Below, piece by piece: positions 1-19,149 of a stretch of 20,000 nucleotides of DNA (position 1 is the stretch's first letter; every line of letters begins with the position of its first letter). Both the position numbers and the translations under genes were made by a program. The notes under the pieces are model-generated. The model saw nothing but the letters and a program-made list of their open reading frames with translations. It had not been told where the DNA came from and searched no databases. This DNA comes from Atractiella rhizophila. Taxonomy: Eukaryota. Location of the stretch: positions 53,462-73,461 of the forward strand of contig MU271400.1 in the NCBI GenBank assembly GCA_021432655.1. The letters run 5' to 3'.

Positions 1-735
1 TGGATTGGGTTTTCCAGGCCGTTCATGCCCGAAGTGACTGCTGGTTGTGACAACTTGGACAACGGTAAGCCTCCATGGCCGCACCAGGTTCTGTGCTCAT
101 TCATTTATACCACTTAATGAACTCGGCATATTCAAGCCAATTAAGCCTTGTTCACGAAGCTGGTATTTCGTGTTCGGGCCGTTTGAACCCGAAAAGTTCA
201 ACTACCTAGATGTTGCCTTGTTAAGCAAATCTCGAAACAGTCTTTCCGCAAGTCTTCTCAGTGTTGATAACTAGCATGTCCGCATGGTCCAATTGCGGTA
301 ACACTTTTGACCAGAAGCAGAATAATTATTGTGAGCAGAAGAAAAATTATGCTGCTGCGCCACGGTTGATGACACATAGTCAGCCTAAGGTGGCTTGCGA
401 TTCCTTATTGTGCACGCGAGAAGCAAAATGCAGGCACCACGATTCAAGCGGACTTCTGCAGGTATAAGAGAATCATAACCAGAAACCTAATAAGACGAAC
501 CAGGTCACCATAATTGCAGTTCTTCTCATTTGTCCCTTCTTTCGTAAACAACATATAACTGCGACTGAAGTAAGGTCCAATAGTTCAAAAGAAGAGATAC
601 CCATTATCAGTCCTTGTTAACAACATGCCTTCAGCTGAAACGAAGCAACCTCTTTCGTTTCCTCTTTCTTATTTATTTCCTAACGCCTATCATTCCAGAA
701 CTTTATGGAACTATAGTGTTAGTACCAAGTCCGTT

Positions 736-1537
736 TCATGCGCTGCCTAAGTACTCCGCAAATTTCTTGGGCTTCCATTCTGGCCAGACTTTGACAGCAT
801 TGATGCGCTCCGAAGAGTCACCTGGCCCTAAATCGAATGTAGTCGTCCCATAACCGTCATCGATCTGCAAAGAAATGTTATTTGAGCGAAGCTGCTGAAG
901 AAAGAACAACAAACATGAACAAGAAGAAAGTTGACAAAGCCCGCAAGATCTTGGGTAAGCGGGAGGTCATCCCTCTTCACATGGACGATTTCACCACCAT
1001 ATTTGTTCTTCAGCAATTCCTGCAGTACGGACTATCGGTGAATACCTAACAGTTGAGAGAGAGGGGAAACATACGGCAACCTCTTTGATGGTCAGACGAT
1101 CTCCTTCCAACCTCCAGATAGAGTTGTACAGCTGCTCTTCCGGAAGCGTGGTCAACGACCAGGCGACGAAGCGACCGACGTCGACGAATGATGTGATGCT
1201 GAGGATACTGTTCCCGTTCAAGACCTTCACTTTCTCTTTCCCGAACAGCCTGCAGAAACAAGAATAAGTCTGATTGACATCTCATGGATGCAACAGGAAG
1301 GACTGGAGTTACCAAGACACATATTCTGCAAAAAGACTGTTGAGGTAGATCGCAGTAGGTATTCCTTCCTCTTCTGCCAGCTTGCGAATTGTGAGCTTCG
1401 GTGCAAGAGGGCTGTTTTCTGTCCGTTGAACCATGTCAGTGCTCTATGTCAAATTTAAATGAGTTCGAAGTCGACCTCACCTTTGGGAATTGAACCGTAT
1501 TCAGAGGGAACGAAAAGCTTGATTCCCGCTTTCTTCG
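736..1537 (-). CDS. NmrA / isoflavone-reductase-like NAD(P)-binding oxidoreductase, 3' exons (normally oriented part)
   Basis: Manual splicing on the minus strand gives AKKAGIKLFVPSEYGSIPK / ENSPLAPKLTIRKLAEEEGIPTAIYLNSLFAEYVSW / LFGKEKVKVLNGNSILSITSFVDVGRFVAWSLTTLPEEQLYNSIWRLEGDRLTIKEVA / ELLKNKYGGEIVHVKRDD...FLLVH / IDDGYG...WPEWKPKKFAEYLGSA*, stop TGA at 738-736. The 'AGxKxFVPSEYG' and 'DVGRFVA' segments are typical of NmrA/IFR-type atypical SDRs. Introns are GT-AG. Confidence 0.85.
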
Positions 1538-1586
1538 CTGATAATAGGAGAACAGGCATGAAGTAAGTACGGTTGATTACACGTAC

Positions 1587-2183
1587 CGCTTCAACACCCA
1601 CCCCTTAATAACTTCACTAGTGCGTTCCCCGTTCATCTCGACGACCTTCCCCTGGTTAGACTACGAGTGGAGTAGGTCGGGCGGCACCGTGGGGAGCGGC
1701 GACGACTAACTGCTAGTGGTTAGTACTTAGTGACGTTCAACGAAGTTACGCGCCGTTGTCACGCTCTGTACCGCTGTAGATACCTTAGACTCGCTGAAAT
1801 TTTTCCCTACTCCTACTCCGTCGACGTAGTCGAACTTCGAGTGTTCGTTTTGTAGAGTCTGTACTGAAAGTTCTGGAAGCGGTAGCGACCTTAAAGACCT
1901 TGGCAGAGATTCTGAAAGGACGTTTCACATCCAAATAGAGGGAGAACAAGTTTCGCCAAGGGACTTCACCGTTAGGTCAAAGAGCTGGAGGGTGCCCAGG
2001 GCTTCTATATGTAAGAGTCAGCGGTCCTGTTTGGACTGCAAGGGAGTGTAGGTTTGCAGTAACAGGAATTTCATCTAATAAGGAGCGGTCTATAGTAACG
2101 GCGAAGATAAGTCCCGTTCCCCTAACTCCAGGACTAGTCATGGTAACCACCCTTAGACGATCGCGTCCTTGGCAACCAATTTC
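1587..2183. other. Mirror-written block 1 (reversed without complementation); left boundary about 1587-1590
   Basis: It codes only in the complement-without-reversal reading. A minus-strand intron with donor GTACGT (1586-1581) and acceptor CAG (1540-1538) sits immediately to its left and accepts the block's last codons in frame. Confidence 0.85.
1862..2183. CDS. 5' exons of the same NmrA-like gene, readable only as the non-reversed complement of the given sequence
   Basis: The complement read left to right gives ATG at 1862, MTFKTFAIAGISGTVSKTFLQS, intron 1928-1978 (GTAGGT...CCAG), then FLDLPRVPKIYILSRQDKPDVPSHPNVIVLKVDYSSPDIIAASIQGKGIEVLISTIGGNLLAQEPLVK up to the gap edge. This is a Rossmann-fold start that continues into the AKKAG exon at 1537 (-). 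Confidence 0.9.
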
Positions 2184-2737
2184 NNNNNNNNNNNNNNNNN
2201 NNNNNNNNNNNNNNNNNNNNNNNNNNNNNNNNNNNNNNNNNNNNNNNNNNNNNNNNNNNNNNNNNNNNNNNNNNNNNNNNNNNNNNNNNNNNNNNNNNNN
2301 NNNNNNNNNNNNNNNNNNNNNNNNNNNNNNNNNNNNNNNNNNNNNNNNNNNNNNNNNNNNNNNNNNNNNNNNNNNNNNNNNNNNNNNNNNNNNNNNNNNN
2401 NNNNNNNNNNNNNNNNNNNNNNNNNNNNNNNNNNNNNNNNNNNNNNNNNNNNNNNNNNNNNNNNNNNNNNNNNNNNNNNNNNNNNNNNNNNNNNNNNNNN
2501 NNNNNNNNNNNNNNNNNNNNNNNNNNNNNNNNNNNNNNNNNNNNNNNNNNNNNNNNNNNNNNNNNNNNNNNNNNNNNNNNNNNNNNNNNNNNNNNNNNNN
2601 NNNNNNNNNNNNNNNNNNNNNNNNNNNNNNNNNNNNNNNNNNNNNNNNNNNNNNNNNNNNNNNNNNNNNNNNNNNNNNNNNNNNNNNNNNNNNNNNNNNN
2701 NNNNNNNNNNNNNNNNNNNNNNNNNNNNNNNNNNNNN
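2184..2737. other. Assembly gap (554 N)
   Basis: Run of N. Confidence 1.
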
Positions 2738-3491
2738 GTTCTTGTAGAGATAATAGTTCCGACTACAAAGGCTGGACCTAGTTTAGCGAGTTCGCCGGTT
2801 TCTTCATCTCCGAGTCAACTTGCCGTTTCCAGAGCTATAAGACCACTTGTTCAAGCATAATGGGGAGAATTTATCATTTGTGAGTTTAAGAAAAAGTCAC
2901 GACCGTAGTGACCTTGAGGAGTCCCACGTCTGCATTACTGGAAGGGGAAGTGGAGGTTGTGCCGCCTTCGGAAGTGTCTTCGCAAGTCTCAGTTGCAGCA
3001 ACCCGGGTAGCTCTGATGTTTCCGAAAGGATGGCGACGAATCCTTCCCTCATCTGTTCTTTTAGCAGAAGTAGAGGAGGTTGGAGCCTGAGGTCATGTTC
3101 CAACCGTGTAGCGAGCTAAAACTACGCTTGTTTCAACCTTACAGACCTGGCATGAGACAAAGCTTCTGCCGCGAGTTATACCGTTCAGTATTCGAACGTC
3201 AGCTCGAGCCTTTTCTTCCTAAATAACAGAAGGAGGAAGTAGGACCGACCCATTCGAAGCAAGAAAGGGAGGTAAAGGTGGACTGAGTTTCTAGTAATGT
3301 CCAATTCTGACTATACCCATAGAGAAGAAAGAAAACTTAATAGCCTCCGAGATTGATACAGTTGTCCTTGCCTAATACGGGGATACTGGGGTCTTCTCTC
3401 GTAGTTCGAAGTCAACCTGTTCAATGTGAGCAACTGTCTCTTTCTTTCAAGCCAGAAGACCCGGCGACTACCCGAGGGACAACCTAAAATT
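2738..3491. CDS. CsgA/C-factor-like classical short-chain dehydrogenase/reductase, central and C-terminal exons, readable only as the non-reversed complement
   Basis: The complement gives KNISIIKADVSDLDQIAQAAKEVEAQLNGKGLDILVN/NAGITG...FRVNVVGPIETTKAFLPLLRKGVDKKIVFISSNLG...GPYSVSKTALNMASHKLAVELGKEGFIVFLLHPGW/VKTDMG/TDYAPMTPEESIK...FWAADGLPVGF*. Introns at 2852-2898, 3251-3301 and 3318-3366 are all GT-AG; stop TAA at 3489-3491. SDR motifs NNAG, catalytic YxxxK (YSVSK) and HPGWVKTDMG are present. Confidence 0.93.
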
Positions 3492-4081
3492 CCATCATTT
3501 AACTTGGTAGGGACTGGTTAACAGAACTACGGTCAAAGTTTGTACTAACCCTTCAGCGGTAAAGGTTAAGCCGCGCTGAGAATGTTATCTCTTTGCGTGA
3601 CAAACAGGGCAAACGCCAAGAAGAAGACGGTAAACTTACAAGGGGAGAACCGAAGTGGTGCCGGATACTATAGTCTCGAGACCTCCACTGCTGTCTCGCC
3701 ACTCTTTTTTGTCTTGGAAGATGTTAAGACATATTTCCCTTCAGATTCAACTGGCGGCAGCTTTAAGACAGATTCTCGTCTAAAACCTCAATTGAGCACA
3801 ACCCGTCCGTTTAGCATGCGAGTTAAGCAATTGCTTATTCGACTCGAAGCCTATAAAAAACGGAGACTGAGTAGTAAGTTGTTAACCGATCTACAAGACG
3901 TTAGTTCAAATTCCCTATGATGTGATCGATACACAGTCCAACACTTCCTTCCTGTTTATCTATTACCACTCGGATGACCAATACCAAGAGAGTATGCACG
4001 GTTCAGGCAAACTTAACATTGCAGACGTAAAATAAAGTGCGGACGTGCTATGTCTAAAACACAATGTTGAATAGGAACGTA
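2738..4081. other. Mirror-written block 2 (reversed without complementation), 1344 bp
   Basis: Its complement starts C AAG AAC ATC and completes the codon left open on the minus strand at 4082 (AAG GAG CG|C AAG AAC = K-E-R-K-N). Confidence 0.92.
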
Positions 4082-4279
4082 CGCTCCTTAGCTAGCGCTG
4101 CGAGATTTGATGCAGATGAAGGATCCCGAGCTAGCGCAAAGACGGTGTTGTTGGAATCTGAGGACAGTTGCCTAACATACTCGAGACCTATACACCTTCA
4201 ATGAGCTCGGTTTGCATGAAAATAACACTGTACCCAATCCTCGAGACGATCCGGTAATAGCGTAAGACTTTCCAGCCAT
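4082..4279 (-). CDS. N-terminal exons of the same SDR (normally oriented)
   Basis: ATG at 4279; exon 4279-4234; intron 4233-4188 (GTACAG...ATAG); exon 4187-4082. Translation MAGKSYAITGSSRGLG LEYVRQLSSDSNNTVFALARDPSSASNLAALAKER contains the TGxxxGxG cofactor motif. Confidence 0.92.
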
Positions 4280-4370
4280 ATTTGTTGTTGGTTTCAGAGA
4301 TGATCAAGGAGATTAAGAGGTTTTGTGGAGCTGTGGGATTCCCTGTTGGTCCTGGAGCCCTTTTAAAGCA

Positions 4371-4376
4371 TTTATA
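4371..4376 (-). promoter_or_regulatory. Candidate TATA box of the SDR gene
   Basis: TATAAA on the minus strand about 90 nt upstream of the ATG at 4279. Confidence 0.4.
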
Positions 4377-5428
4377 AAGCCCGACGATGAAGGCTGATTA
4401 TTAGGCAACTCCGAAGAGTTCCAGTAAGATTCTTTCATTTCATCGCACTTTCTCTTCACTCCTGTAGGACTCTACGGCTCAAAGAGTGTGCAGTCGTTGA
4501 TAACCGCGGGTCGGCGTTAAGGCCGCCTTCTCATCCAGGAATAGACAGAAAAGTACTGTACATATCTTACACCGTGCGCAATGTTTTATCTCAAACGCTG
4601 ACGACATGAAGCAGCGGTTGGCCTGGGAAACAGTGAAGCACTGTACATATGCTTCGGTGACGGGTTGCGCCCGTTACTTGACTTTGGTTTCCTGAACGAG
4701 GAACAACTGATGGATTGGACGACGTGCCCATCTGGTCTACATGAATCGGAAGCCGACCCGTCAACGTACTGGTGAAGTAAGCCAGCGGGCACCATGAAAA
4801 GAACACACCACAGATCATAATGGAGTAACTCTTTTGAAACAGCGCGACCGGGCATTTGCGTTCTCTATGACCCTGGAATGCTGGAGCAATGGAGCAGCCA
4901 CGTTTGAGGCCACGACGATGTGTTACTTTGAAGCTATGGCCTTCATTCTGGCTCCTACTCTTTTATTCGCACAATAATAGCCAAAACGACAAGGCGCAGC
5001 GAAAAATTAGAGTCTTAAGAAGAGAAACAGAGATCTGCTTGAGGCAGCATGAAGTTAGCATGGGAAATCCTAGAGTGCATGGCAACTTGTAGTTCCTGCC
5101 TCCGTGGAATCTACTTGCACAAATCTGCATACTATGAGACAGTAACAGATGGCTTTCCTAAGGTTAGAGCGAGGAAAACATCAGGCGTTCAGACAGCGCG
5201 GATGACAATACCTGTCAATTACCGTTCTCGATTCGACTCCGGCCTGCTTCTTCATCTCATATGTTTTGGAATAATGCAGCTTTCATGCTGATCATTATTC
5301 GAGAGTAGGCGGAGAAATCATAACTTGAAGTGAATGAGACAGGCAGGACCAAGGTTCGGACAGTTTGAGAGTCGGCATTTTATGAGCGCAACGTTCAAGA
5401 CGCGTTCGTTGTTCAGAATCGGTACAAC

Positions 5429-8400
5429 ATGCCCTTCGTATACCATCCTACGCCTTCCCCTGGCCTTTCCTACTTCTCTGCTCTGCCTCCCCCGTCACCA
5501 CCCGTTCTTCCCCACGTAATCTCGAACTTGCGCATCCCAAAAGCGACACAGGCACTTCTGCCAACCCCATCCACTTCGAGCTCCTCGACCCATCCAACAC
5601 GAGTTTATTACCATGAGAGTGACGAGGAACTTGTATGGCATCGTTCTACGGTTGTGCATTCGAGAAAGTCAACCATTTACAGGATCTATGATCTTGCCAG
5701 TTACAAGGAGAAGGTCTCTTGTGCGACTTTTGGGATGTTCGAAATCTCATCAAGCAAAACCTTCTTGTACGAGACATCCACGACATTTCTCGGTTCGAGG
5801 TTCACGCTCGAGACCGCCTTGAATGCTCACTCGAAAGAAGAAGAGGAGAACCCAATTTTCGGACCCTGGCTTTCTCCTCCAGAACCAAAACCATCTTTTG
5901 AACCTGTACCGCAACGAGGTCTTCTGATAATCTTGGAGCGTCTAATGCTCGTCTACTTCCCCGATGGACGAGACTTCCTTCTCCGCGTACCATTCCCCGT
6001 TGCAGCAGTTGCGACTCTGCGAGTCGGGGTTCTCCTTGAAGCCGCGACGACGAAGCGGAGCACCTCAATATTTGAGCAGGACGAAGAGGAAGCGGGAGAT
6101 GTTCCACGCTTATACTCTACCACCACTCCCTTACAGGAACTTCGGCCGGTCGGAGGTATTGAGGTAGATGATCGGCTAGTCTGGGCAGAAGACAGTTGGT
6201 TGGTTTCGACGAAAGAGAGGGAGGGAAAGATTACAATCTGGGAAGTGAGAGAGGCGGAGGTGGTGGAAGATGACGATGAGGGAGATGGGAAGGAGAATGA
6301 AATGATTCTCGAGGAGTTAGACAATCCCCAAAGCAAGATGCTAGATATCGAGCAACATTTCCTTTCGAGTCGACAGCATGGAAGGTATCAATTCCTTCTC
6401 AGTCCTATGTTCAACATCGCCACAGATATACCATATACGTTCGTATTATTTTCATGACTAAGAGGTAACAGTTGACTAAATCTGATCATCATAGTGCAAA
6501 AGAAATAAAAGTGACTCGCGGCAACGACGTCCTCATCATCACAACCCCGCGCTCAACACACTCACTCACTTTCGCTCCTTCCACCTCTCCTTCGTCAAAC
6601 GAAATCTCCATCACTGAGTCTACAACCTTTGGAGAACCGTCCGTCCATACAACTGTGCGAACGCCGTACGGATCATCCGTTCTTCGATCCAACCCAGACA
6701 GGGGAACGGTCACCGTACTGGACCAAGGAGTGGAGGTCAGAGGTTCGATAGAAGGCGTACGATTCGTGGATAATCTAGCGCGCGACGGCTGGAAGGGTCT
6801 GAGACGGGTATTGGAGAGCGTGAAGGACTTATTTGGGGTAGAGAGGTGGAGTAAAGTCGAGGAAGGAGGATGGGATGCACTACACGATGTCTTAATTGGT
6901 CCGTCTGGCCCAGGAAATTCGAAGAAAGGAGCTGCGGAGGTGTGGGAGCGCTTCTTGGCCATGGAACGAGGAGAGGTGTTGGAGGAGGAAGAAGATGAGG
7001 AAATGATGCGCTTTAGAGGGGGAGAGAAAGAATGGCTGGAAGCGCTGATGATGCCTCTTCACGTGGTCTTTCAGGAGTTCCTTCTCTTTGAGAGTCAGCA
7101 CGCAGATGCCCGGAGGCTGGGCAATGTGATGGTGGACTTAAGTAGGAAGGTAGGATGGGTAGATTGGTGGGATTATTACATTCGGTTCGGTGGGAAGGAA
7201 AGCTACACGGGTACCTGGGGAGGTATGTTGTTCATCTTTACATCCTTCCTTTGTTGAAACATCTCTGTTTGAGCATAGAGTCTATCACCCATCCACCGCC
7301 GCCAGACTTCCTCGACTCCTTCCGCGTTGGTCTTCGCAATCCATCAGATATCTCTCCAGAGTTGTTCTCATGGGTTCCTCGCCCGTCACGATTATACGAT
7401 ATCGCGAGCGTTGCTCTGGCTTCCCGAGACGGATTGCAAGACGTAGACAAATACGCACGAATTTCAGCCCTACTGTTGGACGCCAATTTTTGGACTGCAG
7501 AAATGGTCGATGATCTCTCTTTAGGCTTCAGGGCCGTGGTTTCTGAAGTCATCGCCGTCATAAGACGATTCCCAATCCCAAATTTGGACAAGTCTCTTTC
7601 TGAATTGATCGGCAGAGAGGATATGAGGATGATGGCTCCGGATACGAATAAGAGGTTGGATTATAAGGACATGTGTGAGTGGAAGAAGTGGAGTCCTTGG
7701 AGGAATCTAGAGAAACCTATAACGTTCCCGACAATAAATCCTGTCCCTCACTTTTGGAAGAAGCCGTCCTCTCCACCATCTCAACCGGTCCATACCCAAA
7801 ACATCAGATTCTCGAAAGATCGTCGACTCGAAGATGTCGCAAGGATCTTGCAGTACATTGAGCCTGTCACTCTTTCGGTTCCATCTTTACAACAAGATCA
7901 CAATATCCCCAGCCGAACAAACACGTACATGGGACATTTGGCACTCAGGACTCTCTCTCTCCAGCTCGGTTTTGCCATGTATACTTTCCGGTCGCGGATG
8001 GCTCCGGAGGAAGGGATGGTGGATAAATTCGCCTTGAAGACTCCTATCTGTCTTTTTGCCAGGTTGTTACCGGGAAAGAGTTTGACCAAGTACGAAGACC
8101 CGAGTTTGAAGAAAGAATGGCCCACATTTCATCACGGTGTCGCCAGCGCGCTCATGTCGATTTATCCATCCGATCTCTCCGATATACCAGTCACTTCTCT
8201 GCATGCTACAGGGGACCGTGATCCCGCTCACGGAGGTGCCTTGTTGGGAATGGGATTAGCTGGTCTTATGAGGAGGATGACTAAGTTTCAGGCATTTCGA
8301 CACCTCACTGAGAAAGAGAACTTTACGACAATCGGTATTCTGCTGGGTCTCTCAGCTTCACATATCGGAACAGAATCTCCAGACGTCCTCTCGGTCCTCC

Positions 8401-10679
8401 TGCCCTTCATGCCAGCTTTCCATCCACCGGACTCCATTGCGTCTGCTCTTTCGCCCATCGTCCAATCTTCGGCCTTATTGGGTTTGGGATTACTGAATTT
8501 GGGTAGCGGGAAGAAGAGGCTGGCCGACACGATGCTACGAATTTTAAGTGGAATAACACTTTCCACTACATACAACGCGGATGCTTGTACAGAGGCTTAT
8601 GCTCTTTCCGCAGGTCTCGCGTTTGGCATGATTATGATAGCCAAAGGAGCAAAGACGGAGCAGCCTGGTGACGTGGGAACGCTCAAGACCTTTCGAAAAC
8701 TCATAGGAGACTTTGAATATTCTCCCATCCTCGACAGGAAGAAGAAACCAGAGACGGTTATCGACGTCAATATAACTTCTCCTGCGGCTACCATCGCTCT
8801 TGGATTAATGTATTTTAACACTGGGAGGAAAGACATCATCAACATACTCGAGATTCCAGATTCCAAGGTACGGTTGGATTACGTTCGATCCGACCTTGTT
8901 CTCCTTCGAACTTTAGCGAGACATTTAGTGATGTGGGAAGACATCTCCCCTAGTATAGAGTGGATCAACAAATCGTTACCTCCGCTGTTAGCCCCGCGAC
9001 AAGACGGGATGATTTGGCGAGACACAGAGCTCCTGCTAGCAAACTGGTGTATTAGAGCTGGAAGTGCTTTTGCCATGGGTTTGAAGTTTGCAGGAACTGG
9101 GAGTCATCTCGCTTTCACTGCCTTGAAGGGGATGTGCGCGCATTTTAGAGCTATGATGCCTCAAATCCGAGGTCAGTTTCTTCTGGTCATCTGTTTAGGA
9201 CATTTAACCAACTTTTGAGTCCCACCTTGAACAGGGAGAAGTCTCGATGCCACAACTCGCCGTCATGCTCTTCGCACCTGTTCCAACATCGCTTACATCT
9301 CACTCTGTCTCGTGATGGCAGGTACTGGTAATGTAGAGGTTCACAAAAAGCTGCGAGAGCTGCATGGCATTGTGGGAGAGTTGATAACCTATGGACAACA
9401 TGTAGCACATCACCTCGCATTAGGTCTGCTCTATCTCGGTGGCGGCCGTTATACTGTTGGGACGAGTCCAGCAAGCATCGCTGTCCTCATCGCCGCCTTC
9501 TTCCCCATCTTCCCAAAGGATCCGTCAGACAACAGAGCTTACATCCAAGCCTATCGCCATCTCTGGGTACTCGCAGCAGAACCTCGTTTCGTATCTACCC
9601 GTTCCACAGATGGAAGCAGCGTTGGTGCCCCAATACCTATAAGGGTGTGGACAAAAGACGCTCCACCTCCCCGACAAAACTGGAGCGCCTTCAACCCCAT
9701 CCCTGAGCTCAGGCACATCAAGTCTATTTCGATCAACGGGTCACTCCACTTCCCTAATTCGTTTCAACCCGATCCGACGAAAACGAACGGATACGTCTAT
9801 CGATCTTTCCTCAGGAATCGAACAGTATACGCTACACCGAAAAGGAATCCCGAAGCTATGTGGTTACCAGAACTGGACAACTTCCCTTTCTTTGTTGATG
9901 AAAGCCTTCTTGTGGAAGCTGCAAAAGAGGCAACGGTACAGGCAGTCGAAGAGAAGCAAATAAATGACCATGACTCCCTTTTACCAGCAAATGTCGTCGC
10001 ATATTCACTCTGGAACAAGTTCAGGAGACACGATTTCACTTCAACTCTCTTGCGATCGTTGATACAGTCCCTCGCGACAGATGATTCCCTTTCTCTCATT
10101 TCGCCTTTCCACTCCCTTTTTGACCATGCGTACGATCTCTCTCCCACGTTATCAAACTCTACGACAATGGAAAAAATTATTCAGGCGCGTCACAGTGGGT
10201 TCCTGATGGAGTTTTACGTCTCCTCTGGAGGTGAGGGTGGAGGAGAGCTTAAGACTAGTCTATTCGACAGATACATCAGGTTTCCAGAGATCGACGATAC
10301 ATGGGGTCGAGATAAGCGTCACGATAAAATGGCCTCCCTCTCCCTCTTCATCGAACGTGAACTGGAAAACATTCTCGTTTCCTCTACCTCCTCCCGTTTA
10401 ACTCGAGATTTCATCACGTTCCTCACATCCAAACAATCTCACCGATATCCTGCGGATGAGCGACGGAGAGCCGATTTGTTGACGTTGTTGTGGAAGTTGA
10501 ATGTGCCCACGTCGTTTGAGCAACTAGAAGGCATGAGAAAAGCGGTGGAGGAGATGGAGGGCGAGTGGGAGGAGAAATGGGACGCAGTGTTGGCTGAGCG
10601 ATGGGGAATGAGAGGCGGAGTGTCGTTCAAGGTGCTAAGGGAAGGGTGGAGAATGGCCAGACAATCGGAGGATTTTTAG
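5429..10679 (+). CDS. APC1: Anaphase-promoting complex/cyclosome subunit 1, about 1670 aa
   Basis: Four long ORFs join in frame via introns 6385-6494, 7223-7278 and 9172-9234. APC1-typical segments: RFSKDRRLEDVARIL, EWPTFHHGVASAL, PC-repeat stretches (HGGALLGMGLAG, GILLGLSASHIGT, SPAATIALGLMY), MAGTGN, YGQHVAHHLALGLLYLGGGRYT, DNRAYIQAYRHLWVLAAEPR. The first intron boundaries are the least certain. Confidence 0.93.
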
Positions 10680-13714: not shown

Positions 13715-16700
13715 ATGGCTCCATCGTTGGACACAGTCCTGCAAGCCACTCTATTAGATCCTAGCGTAAGTTCCCAGTTATTATTGTTACCTCAAACCAC
13801 TGACGACATTGGCCAAACGGACGGACAGGCGCGTGTCCCCCCGACTTATGCGCCTGCTCTCACAGCGCATCTCGCTCTCTTCCCCAATGACACGCATTTC
13901 GCTATCTCCTTCGAACCTGGGAGTGGTTACGGTACAGTGACATGCTTGGAGAGGGGTTGTGAGATGGATATCCCCCTTGGAGCAGCCAAAGGGAGAGGAG
14001 GGGGAAAGAGAATTGGGTTTGGAGAGCTGAAACATTATCATGTGCGTTCTCTCTTCATGTTAGTTGGTGCTATTGTGGACGATGGCGAGTTTCCACACCT
14101 GTGTTAATAGACAGAGAGTTGTTCTCACTACTTGGGAGATATGGACGAGATGTTCGATATCAGAGGATACTTTATTCCTATTGCCGTTGTGTTCAAAAGG
14201 CGATTCAACGATGAATTCCATTGGAAAATGAGACCGAAAGCGTCACACATTTCTCAATCCATAACTTCTCAAGTGAGCCGCACACTTCCCGGTTCTTAGG
14301 ATGACTAAATGCTCGTCTAGAGGAAATAGGGGAGAATACGTTTCGTGTGACATCCTCATTTACTTGTTCTCCCTTTGTTAGAAATTCGGATTTCGTTCTC
14401 ATTAAGAGAATAGCGTGTCACTCACGAAATTCACATCATTGGCTCTGTGCCGAAGAAACGCAACGCGTCTCTTGCATTCCTACCTATAATGTACTTTACG
14501 GTCTATTCAGCAGCTACAAAAGAGTGGACCGCTCCCCTTCCGAATTATTTGCAGGAGTTCGTTTCGAGTAAAGCAAAATCGAGCAAGCCACATGGTCGTG
14601 TTTGTCCCAACTTTCTTGAACATTAGCAATGCGAGCCTCCCTCTGAAATTATTTGATAAAAGGATACTGCGGCTACAGCAGGAGGCCCAAGATGCCTTTC
14701 TTCAGTTTCTCGACACATTACGCCTCTGCAGTGTTTTCGATATACTTGACATTGCCGTCCTGGTTATTGATTTCTGAATGACTGGGAATGTTCGTAACAC
14801 TTAATATGTCTCTGTTGGTAGAGTTTTGTCCTTCTGAATAATCCCCTGTAAATATTGTGCCGAATGATTAGAACAAGACTGAGCTCGAGTCGAGGCTGAC
14901 TATCTCCACAGAATCACATAATGACCCATCCGACACATTCGCGTATGCGAGACGAGCGCGTCCTTCAGTTAGAGCAGCTGACGAAGAAGTCAGTCGAGAA
15001 GAAGAAGAAGAAAAAGCGAACTTCAGACGAAGCTGAACTCCCGGTTTTCTCTTCCGTGCAAGGGAATAAAAAGACAAGGATTGACAGTATTGATCTCGAC
15101 AACATGAAAATGACAAGGGAGGTGGGCCGAGTTGAACCTATCGATTTGGAGGCGATGGATATGGAAACTCCTACCCGAGTGACTGCATTTAGCAGGGAGA
15201 GGGAGGCGAATAGAGTGGCTATCCAACGCTTCGAGACCTCACCTGCTACGGCTTCGACGTCCAGTAGAATCCATCCTTCCACCTCAGCGGTGGCGCTTGA
15301 CGTGTTACCTCCGAATTCGCCGCAGAAGTCGAAATTAGGCAAGCTGATTGTTATGTTCAAAGAAGCGGTGGAGAAGGAGGGACAGTGTGAGAAAGAGATC
15401 TCGGATGGGATCAGATATCTTTCGAACGAGCAAATACGAGCTTTGCAAGCACAGGTGAAGAGCTGGCAGGCGATAAAGGAGCTGGTTAGGAAACAGATCG
15501 GCGATGGAAAGGCCAACCAAATACTCGCTGCCACCACTGGAGCAATGACACCTGCCAGACCCACTTTCAACGCGAACGCCATTGCAGGACCTTCATCTGT
15601 CCCGAATGTGAACAGACACTACCCTCACTGCCATCCCATCTGAAGGTAGACGAACGGGAAGAACGTCTCTGCCTTCTTCCAACACAGCATTCGGTGTGGC
15701 CACCCACGCAGCTGTCGCACTCCTCTCTGGACAAGCCTACCTCCCGGACCAGTTCGACCTTGACGATGACGACGACTACTCGTATCTTCAGCATCGTGCG
15801 AGCGGGGCAGAGAGAAGAGAGGAGCTGGAGAGCCTGATGAAGAAGGCGGCGGAAGGAGACTTCGAGGGAGAGGGCATGACGGTAGGAGAGGCAATGCAAA
15901 AGTTGGGATTGGACGACGACGCGACCCCATTACCTGGAAGCCAGATCAACTTGATGCCTCATCAGATTTTGGGTGTGGCATGGATGCTTGATCAAGAGAA
16001 CAGCAAGAATAAGGGAGGGATTTTAGCAGATGAGATGGGTTTGGGGAAAACCGGTTAGCTTCCCTCCGTCCGCAACGAGGTTCAATTCTGAAAGGTAGAA
16101 AAACAGTCCAGACCATAGGCCTATTGGTGCAGAATCCTCCGCAAGACTCGAGGCGACGAACTACGCTCATTGTTGCTCCCCTCTCTCTGCTCGACCAGTG
16201 GAAAAATGAAATCATGCAGTACGCTGATGGGCTCGAAGTCCTAATTTATCATTCTTCCGGAACTAAGGTAAAGACCACAAAGGAGTTGCAGGAATACGAT
16301 GTCGTGCTCACTAACTACGAAACGTTTGTACTTTCTAACCTCGACCTTGGCAAATTCTGAGGAATGTTTGAAAACTAGGCTGAGATTTCAATGGCCAGAC
16401 GATCATCTTGATGAATTAGGCAGATATCATGAACCGAAGGAGAAGAAGAAGAAGAAAAGAAGGAGCGAGTTAGAAATGTTTGAAGAGAGCGATGGTGAAA
16501 GCGAGGATGTCGAGAAGCGCGAGAGGAAAGGTTCAGCTTCCCCCGTTTGCTCTCTTCGAGTTGCATCTAACCTGAAAGGAACAGCTGGGATTCTCATAAA
16601 GATGAAGTGGTACAGGGTTGTTCTAGGTGCGCCATTGCCTTCTCGATCCGGTATAACCTACTCATTCGCCCATGGACAGATGAAGCTCGTGCGACTTCCT

Positions 16701-19149
16701 ACTCTTTATTTTGACATTCCTTACTCTGCAGCAGACATCATCCGCAATCCAAACTCCCTTACATCTAAGGCGATAACTAGAGGCCTCGATGCAAAGTACC
16801 GTTGGTGTCTCTCAGGAACGCCGCTGATCAATGGACTCAAAGACGCCTTTCCGCTACTCAAATTCATCAGACTTCGAGTCTACAGTGACTGGGTCGAGTT
16901 CAATCGGCATGTGAGTCCAGAATTTCAATTCAAACACTGAACTAAAGGGTTGTAGGTCATGAAAGGAATGGGATCAGAACCTGGAAACGCTGGGCAGCGC
17001 CTTCAAGTCATCTTCAAGAGCTGTATGTTCAGGAGAAGAAAGACCTCCACGCTGGGAGGGAAGCCAATGTGGCTCGTTCGTTCCTTTAATTTATATCACT
17101 GATGTCTCGTCTCAGCCTCAAATTGCCTCCGAAAGTCATTGAAGATGTTCCTTTGGAGTTCTCCGAAGACGAACGACAGGTGCGTAGGCATTGACTACTA
17201 CGGCGTACTTCTGAGAGAATCACAGATCTACGCGGCTGTTGAAAGGAGGGAGAAGGCGAAGTTCAACAAGTTTTTGAGGTTAGTTCTGCGTCTATAATGT
17301 ACCCACAATCCTAATCCTAGTCTAGGGAAGGCACCGTACTCAAAAACTTTGCTCAAGTGCTAGTAATGCTTCTCAGGTTGCGGCAGATCTGTAACCATCC
17401 TTGGTAAGTAAGCCTCACAGCAGTATCTATCGCTCAAGGTATCAATATATCTCAGTCTTATTACTGAAGATGTCAGCACTCATCGTTATCAGTCGGGGAA
17501 TTATTTAACCTCAAATGCAGATGAATCCGTTCGAACTAAGCGCAGAAGATACGAAGTCTGAGGTAGCTCGAGCTTTGCAAGAATCTGGACACGATTTTGT
17601 GATGCGCCTGAAGAGAATGTTGCGGGACAGAGTATCCATTTCTCAGTCAGCTTCGAAATTATTGACGTGTAAATGCAGTTCGAGGAGAAGGTGGAAGCGG
17701 AAAAAAAGGGGAAAGACGTTGAGGTCTTCGACGAATGCCCCGTCTGTGCCGACACTCTGGAGAACAGCTACGGTATGGCCTATTGCTCCTGAGAAACTGA
17801 GCTTACAAACGGAACCACAGCCGTTGCTCCGTGTGCCCACATCTTCTGCTCTCCATGTCTAGAGAAGATATGGACCAGCCCGCCACCGATGAACGATCTC
17901 AACGACCGCATCGCCCCTCAATATGCCGAAGAAGAGCGAGCTTGTCCCACCTGCAGGTTTGTGACCCATCAAACATTGAAGCGTTCTAAACTTTCAGCAG
18001 GGGCCCTATTTGCAGGCAGCGGACCTATAATATCGAAGCGTTTGAGCCATCTCGGGATGATATGCTTGGGGCCAAGCGCCTGAAAACCTTGCTTTTCAAT
18101 GAGGAAGATTCTGACAGTGATGACGATGGGTCGGTTCGTGTCCCTGCTCTGATTCTGTCCTTACAGGATGCTCACTTATAGCCAGCTCAAGGATTTTAAT
18201 GTTCATGGAAATGAGAGTTCTGACGTTGAATGGCGACCAAAGCTTGAAAATAACGGCAAAGGTGTCGTGAAAAAGCCCATAATAATTGATGAAATAAAAA
18301 TGGTAGGTGATTTGCTCCGATTATTTTTCTCCCAATTGAACTTCAACAACAGGAAATCAACGATGAAGCGGAAGTGGATGGAGCCGTCTTCGTGAAGAAA
18401 ATGTCATCTCAAGAGGGTAAACCTGTCGTCAAGCTGAAGGGTGATAAGGAGATCATGAAAATGGTTCAGAATTTTGACAAGATGATCCCGTCCACAAAAA
18501 TGACTTGGATGTTAAATACAATAAAGTCCTGGCGAGCAACTGATCCAGACGACAAGGTAAGATGGGCTTATTGACGGTTTACACTGACTGTTCATCTACA
18601 GGTGGTTGTCATAAGTCAGTGGACGAGCTGTCTTGACATTCTCGCGAATTACTTATCTGAGAACAACATTCGCCATGTCAGCTACACAGGAGACATGAAG
18701 GCTGACGAGCGAGCAGAAGTTGTGCAAAAATTCCAAAAGGGAAAGATCAAGTATCTGCTCCTCAGCTTAAAGTGTGGTGGTGAGCATGTTTGCTAGCCTT
18801 TAATATTTTCTCACCTGTTGAGCAGGGGTTGGTCTTAATCTCACCAAAGGGAATCGCATCATCCATTTTGATCTTGCTTGGTCTGAAGCCGTGGAAGCTC
18901 AAGCTTTTGACCGATGTCATAGGATCGGCCAGAGAAAGGCCGTTCGTGTGAACAGAATTACAATCAAACAAACTGTGGAGGAGAGGATCAAAGAGCTGCA
19001 GGAACGCAAAAGGTTGTTGGTCGAATCTTCACTTGGGGAGGGTGGTGGAAAAAGTGCGTCGCTTATTCACAGTTATCCATGCTCATGAGCTCCTAGAAAT
19101 TGGTAGACTCTCTGTCCAGGACCTCTGCTTCCTTTTCGGCGTTGCGTGA
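13715..19149 (+). CDS. SNF2-family ATPase with embedded C3HC4 RING finger (Rad5/Rad16/Uls1-Ris1-like), many introns
   Basis: Q motif LMPHQ; motif I GGILADEMGLGKT/VQ; TTLIVAPLSLLDQW; motif II VVL/DEA/HIIRN; motif III WCLSGTPLIN; LLRLRQICNHP; RING CPVC...PCAHIFCSPC...CPTCR; PSTKM; VVISQWTSCLD; LLSLKCGGVGLNL; motif VI QAFDRCHRIGQ; C-terminal RLSVQDLCFLFGVA*, stop at 19147-19149. The helicase/RING part (about 15750-19149) is secure; attaching exons 13715-14041 and 14912-~15607 is less so. Confidence 0.85.
14997..15016 (+). repeat. Short (GAA/AAG)n tract encoding a poly-Lys stretch (possible nuclear localisation signal); a similar tract lies at about 16440-16462
   Basis: GAGAAGAAGAAGAAGAAAAA encodes EKKKKKK(R); the second tract encodes EKKKKKRR. 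Confidence 0.5.

Follow-up and report, generated by a model that had tools for sequence, protein, structure and literature searches.

Two blocks flanking a gap in an Atractiella rhizophila contig are written in mirror order, each hiding part of a minus-strand gene

The 20,000-nucleotide stretch of Atractiella rhizophila contig MU271400.1 analyzed here (the window) contains a single run of N, and the sequence on either side of it, 1541-2183 on the left and 2738-4081 on the right, is mirror-written. Almost certainly this is a computer strand-handling error in which each block was mirrored in place, and turning the blocks restores two intact minus-strand genes, one for an NmrA-like reductase and one for a short-chain dehydrogenase. 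As neither strand of either block is readable, both genes look truncated in the record. Below we describe the orientation of the blocks, the two junctions at which they rejoin correctly written sequence, the corrected reductase gene and the family of its product, and then consider how such a fault could have arisen.

RESULTS

The N terminus of the NmrA-like gene is readable only in mirror orientation

A correctly written 58-residue exon of the reductase gene (P0001; window positions 1075-1248, minus strand) was used as the query for a protein search. Four proteins among 47 candidates had E values of 0.001 or below, all named as Atractiella rhizophila, and P0003 was the best of them. In tblastn, residues 1 to 89 or 90 of all four homologues (P0003 to P0006) match the mirrored sequence only, at window positions 1862-2182, with E values from 9e-50 (best) to 7e-35. 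On either strand of the window as written, the same proteins match only from residue 87 or 88 onward, at 1550-739. The outcome was identical whether positions 1-2183 or the whole window was searched. Thus the complement of 1862-2183 supplies residues 1-90 of the NmrA-like protein, a segment that the initial annotation had reported missing from both strands and had found in this same complement.

The open reading frames agree with the homology. We read 1587-2183 in twelve ways, in three frames each of the plus strand, its reverse complement, its complement and its plain reversal. A single long open frame emerged, in frame 2 of the complement taken left to right; it begins with a start codon at 1862 and stays open as far as the gap edge (2183). 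No long open frame was found in the upstream part, 1541-1861, after turning, and a frame of 155 codons is open across the corrected 1540/1541 junction. The left block therefore holds the start codon, the Rossmann-type N terminus and the upstream region of the minus-strand gene, as the initial annotation had it. The A of the start codon, at 1862, happens to be the exact center of the block 1541-2183, and its coordinate is left unchanged by turning.

A second approach needs no proteins and agrees with the homology result. A third-order Markov model was fitted to the normally written sequence of the window, and stretches of sequence were then scored forward versus reversed. All 28 normal 600-base windows left out of the training had a direction score above zero (mean, 23.4; standard deviation, 8.0; range, +8.8 to +37.2). 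In contrast, the left block scored -27.6 and the right block -46.2, with three parts of the latter giving -18.5, -18.6 and -24.8. No further block of comparable size in the window scores as reversed.

Read contigs depart from the written sequence after 1540 and carry on into the mirrored gap edge

Logan contigs from four public sequencing runs (X1, X3, X5 and X9, out of 11 runs listed) were aligned to window positions 1-6000 as written. What they say about mirror writing concerns the two block edges, 1540 and 4082. At the left edge, one X1 contig fits 1231-1540 without a gap and then continues with CTTTAACC; it runs through two unspliced introns and so is genomic. The loose end agrees at 8 of 8 positions with the letters leading up to 2183 in mirror order, versus 2 of 8 with the letters as written. 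Proof of the left junction at the DNA level consists of these 8 letters of one contig. Over the fitted part the same contig has 5 differences from the window in 310 positions and probably represents the other haplotype. The window may have been assembled from the X1 sample itself, in which case X1 checks the assembly but carries no independent biology.

The other two runs that reach this edge, X3 and X9, are labelled as other organisms and have diverged from the window. Two X9 contigs leave it at exactly 1540, with a loose end of 106 letters that matches the mirror of the gap-edge letters at 27 of 30 positions, versus 6 of 30 as written. One X3 contig also leaves at exactly 1540, with a loose end of 84 letters (24 of 30 to the mirror, versus 6 of 30 as written). 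The homology, the open frame and the contig edges thus agree that the sequence to the left of the gap has undergone reversal without complementation, as the initial annotation proposed.

Coverage adds little. Depth was zero in every bin of 1601-4000 in all four runs, and the uncovered part proves nothing by itself. At the level of index words, the best runs, X1 and X2, have a fraction of 0.41 of the 179 words sampled from 400-2183, and none of the 11 listed runs reaches half; this fits a block that is missing from the reads (ceiling, about 0.63), and we do not count it as evidence. The 11 listed runs sharing index words of 400-2183 included no RNA run.

The block begins at 1541 rather than at 1587 or 1590

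The same contigs decide where the block begins. In the initial annotation it began at 1587 or 1590, and the gap edge was spliced to 1537 through a real 49-base minus-strand intron at 1586-1538 (GTACGT...CAG). Neither boundary disrupts the reading frame, and the GT..AG ends of the supposed intron look plausible. We modelled both, and the contigs that exit at 1540 ruled them out. Under that version a contig would exit at 1537-1539, lacking three letters that the contigs do have; instead, the contigs of X1, X3 and X9 fit as far as 1540, and their loose ends open with the mirrored gap edge in full. Moreover, no contig joint exists at 1538-1586, while four other introns of the gene are bridged. The X1 contig retains two other introns and yet is devoid of 1541-1586, so in the DNA these 46 bases are not located there; they are part of the mirrored block and after correction adjoin the gap. 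The protein sequences point the same way. The two joins offered, LVKAKKAG and LVKGAKKAG, differ from all four homologues, the first being a residue short and the second replacing the A or T of the homologues with G. Taken together, these observations make a boundary at 1587 or 1590 with a real intron very improbable. The proposal to turn the block and align it with homologues was sound in that it restores the N terminus, provided that the turned piece starts at 1541 and not at 1587 or 1590. Likewise, reads were expected to fix the boundary, and the contigs did locate an edge, at 1540/1541.

The corrected gene has six exons and encodes 281 residues

Once 1541-2183 is turned in place and five introns are taken out, the gene has six exons and yields a product of 281 residues (Table 1). 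Its coding sequence crosses the 1540/1541 junction without an intron. The product aligns with P0003 (also 281 residues) without a gap, with 274 of 281 residues identical and LVKAAKKAG at the junction in both. The initial annotation had also placed one 51-nucleotide intron in the mirrored part, and we retain it as a predicted intron with GT..AG ends at 1928-1978, whose removal gives the gapless fit to P0003. The remaining four introns are bridged by contigs of X3, X5 and X9, which indicates that spliced copies of the gene or of close relatives are present in those runs.

Near the 3' end of the gene, one X3 contig joins across 453-500 and 559-600 (both with CT..AC ends) and reaches 755, beyond the stop codon of the NmrA-like gene at 736-738. 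These joints, in 452-755, belong either to a spliced 3' untranslated region or to a downstream minus-strand transcript that overlaps the end of the gene.

Table 1. Features of the two mirror-written blocks and the genes that they interrupt (coordinates of the window as written)
Feature	Position	Length (bases)	Strand	Remarks
Left mirror-written block	1541-2183	643		True plus strand is the letters read from 2183 back to 1541
Upstream region (promoter and 5' leader), mirror-written	1541-1861	321	-	Includes 1541-1586
NmrA-like gene, exon 1	1862-1927		- after correction	Start codon and residues 1-22; unreadable except as the complement left to right
NmrA-like gene, intron 1 (predicted from homology)	1928-1978	51	-	GT..AG as the complement left to right
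NmrA-like gene, exon 2, first part, mirror-written	1979-2183		-	Residues 23-90 and first base of codon 91; continues straight into 1540
NmrA-like gene, exon 2, remainder	1481-1540		-	Correctly written
NmrA-like gene, exon	1312-1418		-	Correctly written
NmrA-like gene, exon	1074-1248		-	Correctly written
NmrA-like gene, exon	915-1018		-	Correctly written
NmrA-like gene, last exon	736-864		-	Stop codon 736-738
NmrA-like gene, other introns	1419-1480, 1249-1311, 1019-1073, 865-914		-	Bridged by contigs of X3, X5 and X9; CT..AC ends
N run	2184-2737	554		Single N run in the window; scaffold gap or masked stretch
Right mirror-written block	2738-4081	1344		Flipped in place; holds the rest of the short-chain dehydrogenase gene
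Dehydrogenase, residues 40-76 of P0043	2739-2849			Complement left to right
Dehydrogenase, residues 77-199 of P0043	2897-3265			Complement left to right
Dehydrogenase, 5' part	4082-4279		-	Correctly written; start codon near 4277-4279, one intron; open frames

The right-hand block was mirrored separately

On the other side of the gap, the short-chain dehydrogenase gene shows the same pattern. Residues 1-39 of P0043 match 4197-4081 as written, and residues 40-199 match the mirror only (E 3e-86). Pfam gave no family for the 38-residue dehydrogenase piece. An X1 contig that fits 4082-4572 carries 202 loose letters before 4082, the last 30 of which agree at 30 of 30 positions with the mirror of 2738-2767, versus 11 of 30 as written. 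At 4543-4887 and elsewhere, pairs of X1 contigs cover the same place, one identical to the window and the other with 15 differences and 6 gaps; such pairs are what two haplotypes would give if the fungus is heterozygous or dikaryotic.

The two blocks and the gap form one uninterrupted stretch, as they would had all of 1541-4081, gap included, been mirrored as a single unit. Such a unit would put 4081 beside 1540 and 1541 beside 4082, whereas the contigs show 2183 beside 1540 and 2738 beside 4082, and open frames run across both junctions once the blocks are turned separately. We give a single mirrored unit practically no chance: since 2183 adjoins 1540 and 2738 adjoins 4082, each block was flipped by itself and not with the gap, in keeping with the initial annotation.

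No contig from the four runs bridges 2184-2737. A false gap, one whose corrected gap-facing ends overlap, was rejected, the comparison of those ends giving only two 9-base matches (E 2.6).

The gene product is probably a member of the NmrA-like family

Since P0003 is identical to the product of the corrected gene at 274 of 281 residues, it was used as a stand-in for family searches. Residues 5-278 of P0003 match the Pfam family NmrA (PF05368) with 60.3 bits against a cut-off of 27, and residues 12-110 match NAD_binding_10 (PF13460) with 26.2 bits, just under the cut-off of 27.2. The P0001 exon by itself had no Pfam family match. The N-terminal Rossmann-type NAD(P)-binding segment is present in the restored residues 1-90 and is glycine-rich at 8-16; a glycine-rich loop of this form is typical of the NmrA-like family.

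P0003 also matches nine distinct sequences of solved structures. The best is 1qyc, a phenylcoumaran benzylic ether reductase (E 1.1e-07), followed by isoflavone reductase homologues, isoeugenol synthase and pinoresinol reductase. In the alignment of P0003 with 1qyc, the lysine after the SE[FY]G segment is aligned between the two proteins, and this lysine is catalytic in the phenylcoumaran benzylic ether reductase/isoflavone reductase group. By sequence similarity, the gene product is a member of that group, and its function is most likely that of an NAD(P)H-dependent reductase, the activity that family membership would imply. The plant phenylcoumaran benzylic ether, isoflavone and pinoresinol reductases (1qyc, 9qrg, 2gas and 7cs9) are similar to P0003, the best of them, 1qyc, over residues 55-280. 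However, the similarity is distant (34.6 bits), the fungal protein is about 25 residues shorter, and its first 54 residues are unaligned.

The closest relative is P0003 itself, called 'NAD(P)-binding protein' in its NCBI record, which has the same length and the same junction sequence as the window's protein but seven substitutions. It is encoded on another, shorter A. rhizophila contig of 16,765 bases and is thus an allele, a recent paralogue or an orthologue. P0043 lies beside P0003 on that contig, just as the dehydrogenase gene lies beside the NmrA-like gene in the window, and P0004 is found there as well; the gene neighborhood is therefore conserved.

Other genes in the window

Farther along, the plus strand of 5369-10679 carries a long gene of several exons that encodes anaphase-promoting complex subunit 1. 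A search with the APC1-like frame at 7146-9215 gave 36 hits, the best named one from Microbotryum intermedium with 39% identity, and Pfam assigned PF18122, PF27562 and PF21282 among them. No Atractiella protein was found among the long candidates for this frame. Open frames at 15612-16940, also on the plus strand, contain DEMGLGKT, which we take to be typical of SNF2-type helicases.

DISCUSSION

A DNA strand cannot be reversed without being complemented, a consequence of the polarity of its backbone that is established chemistry. The pattern at 1541-2183 and 2738-4081 is therefore a computer error, and no DNA molecule carries this letter order. One could still take the sequence as written for real DNA, with the likeness of its complement to an N terminus due to chance or to some unfamiliar biology. 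We found no support for this reading. Backbone polarity forbids it, and it would have to accommodate a mirrored match with an E value of 9e-50, a direction score about 6 standard deviations below that of normal windows, and contigs that exit at both block edges and go on as the mirror. Its probability is negligible.

Two slips in handling strands would produce identical letters: a minus-oriented piece could have been complemented but not reversed, or a piece could have been reversed but not complemented. Our best guess is that scaffolding or gap closing introduced a faulty flip as short minus-oriented contigs, or partial gap extensions, were written out. Both blocks abut the scaffold gap exactly, which suggests a step of this kind. 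A different origin is that the mirror writing arose after the public assembly, in later handling of the data, so that the deposited record would be free of the fault. With block edges that coincide exactly with a scaffold gap, an assembly or scaffolding step is the better fit, a matter of fit rather than a test, and we regard later handling as unlikely.

The assembly or scaffolding error that we favor has ordinary counterparts. Orientation errors in draft assemblies, such as inverted contigs and faulty gap fills, likewise leave a wrong-way piece beside a gap and broken gene models. In those cases, however, the misoriented piece, being a reverse complement, still reads normally on its opposite strand, whereas here the piece has been reversed only (or complemented only) and neither strand is readable. 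We found no description of a reversed-only assembly block in the titles and abstract openings of the literature searched, and nothing pertinent there on the assembly of Atractiella.

It is about as likely as not that the fault is systematic, with short gap-flanking pieces complemented but not reversed throughout this assembly, and perhaps in others from the same pipeline. If it is, parts of many genes would be hidden from annotation. Within both blocks, gene prediction, searches for homologues and the mapping of reads all break down, and truncated genes or odd sequence of this kind could be mistaken for novelty. The k-mer direction score could find such blocks in public assemblies without reads. 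At this locus there is no new biology: the gene is that of an ordinary, intact NmrA-like reductase with an annotated relative of 97.5% identity. The corrected boundaries, 1541 and 4081, together with the direction score, give curators the means to repair the locus and to seek the same fault elsewhere.
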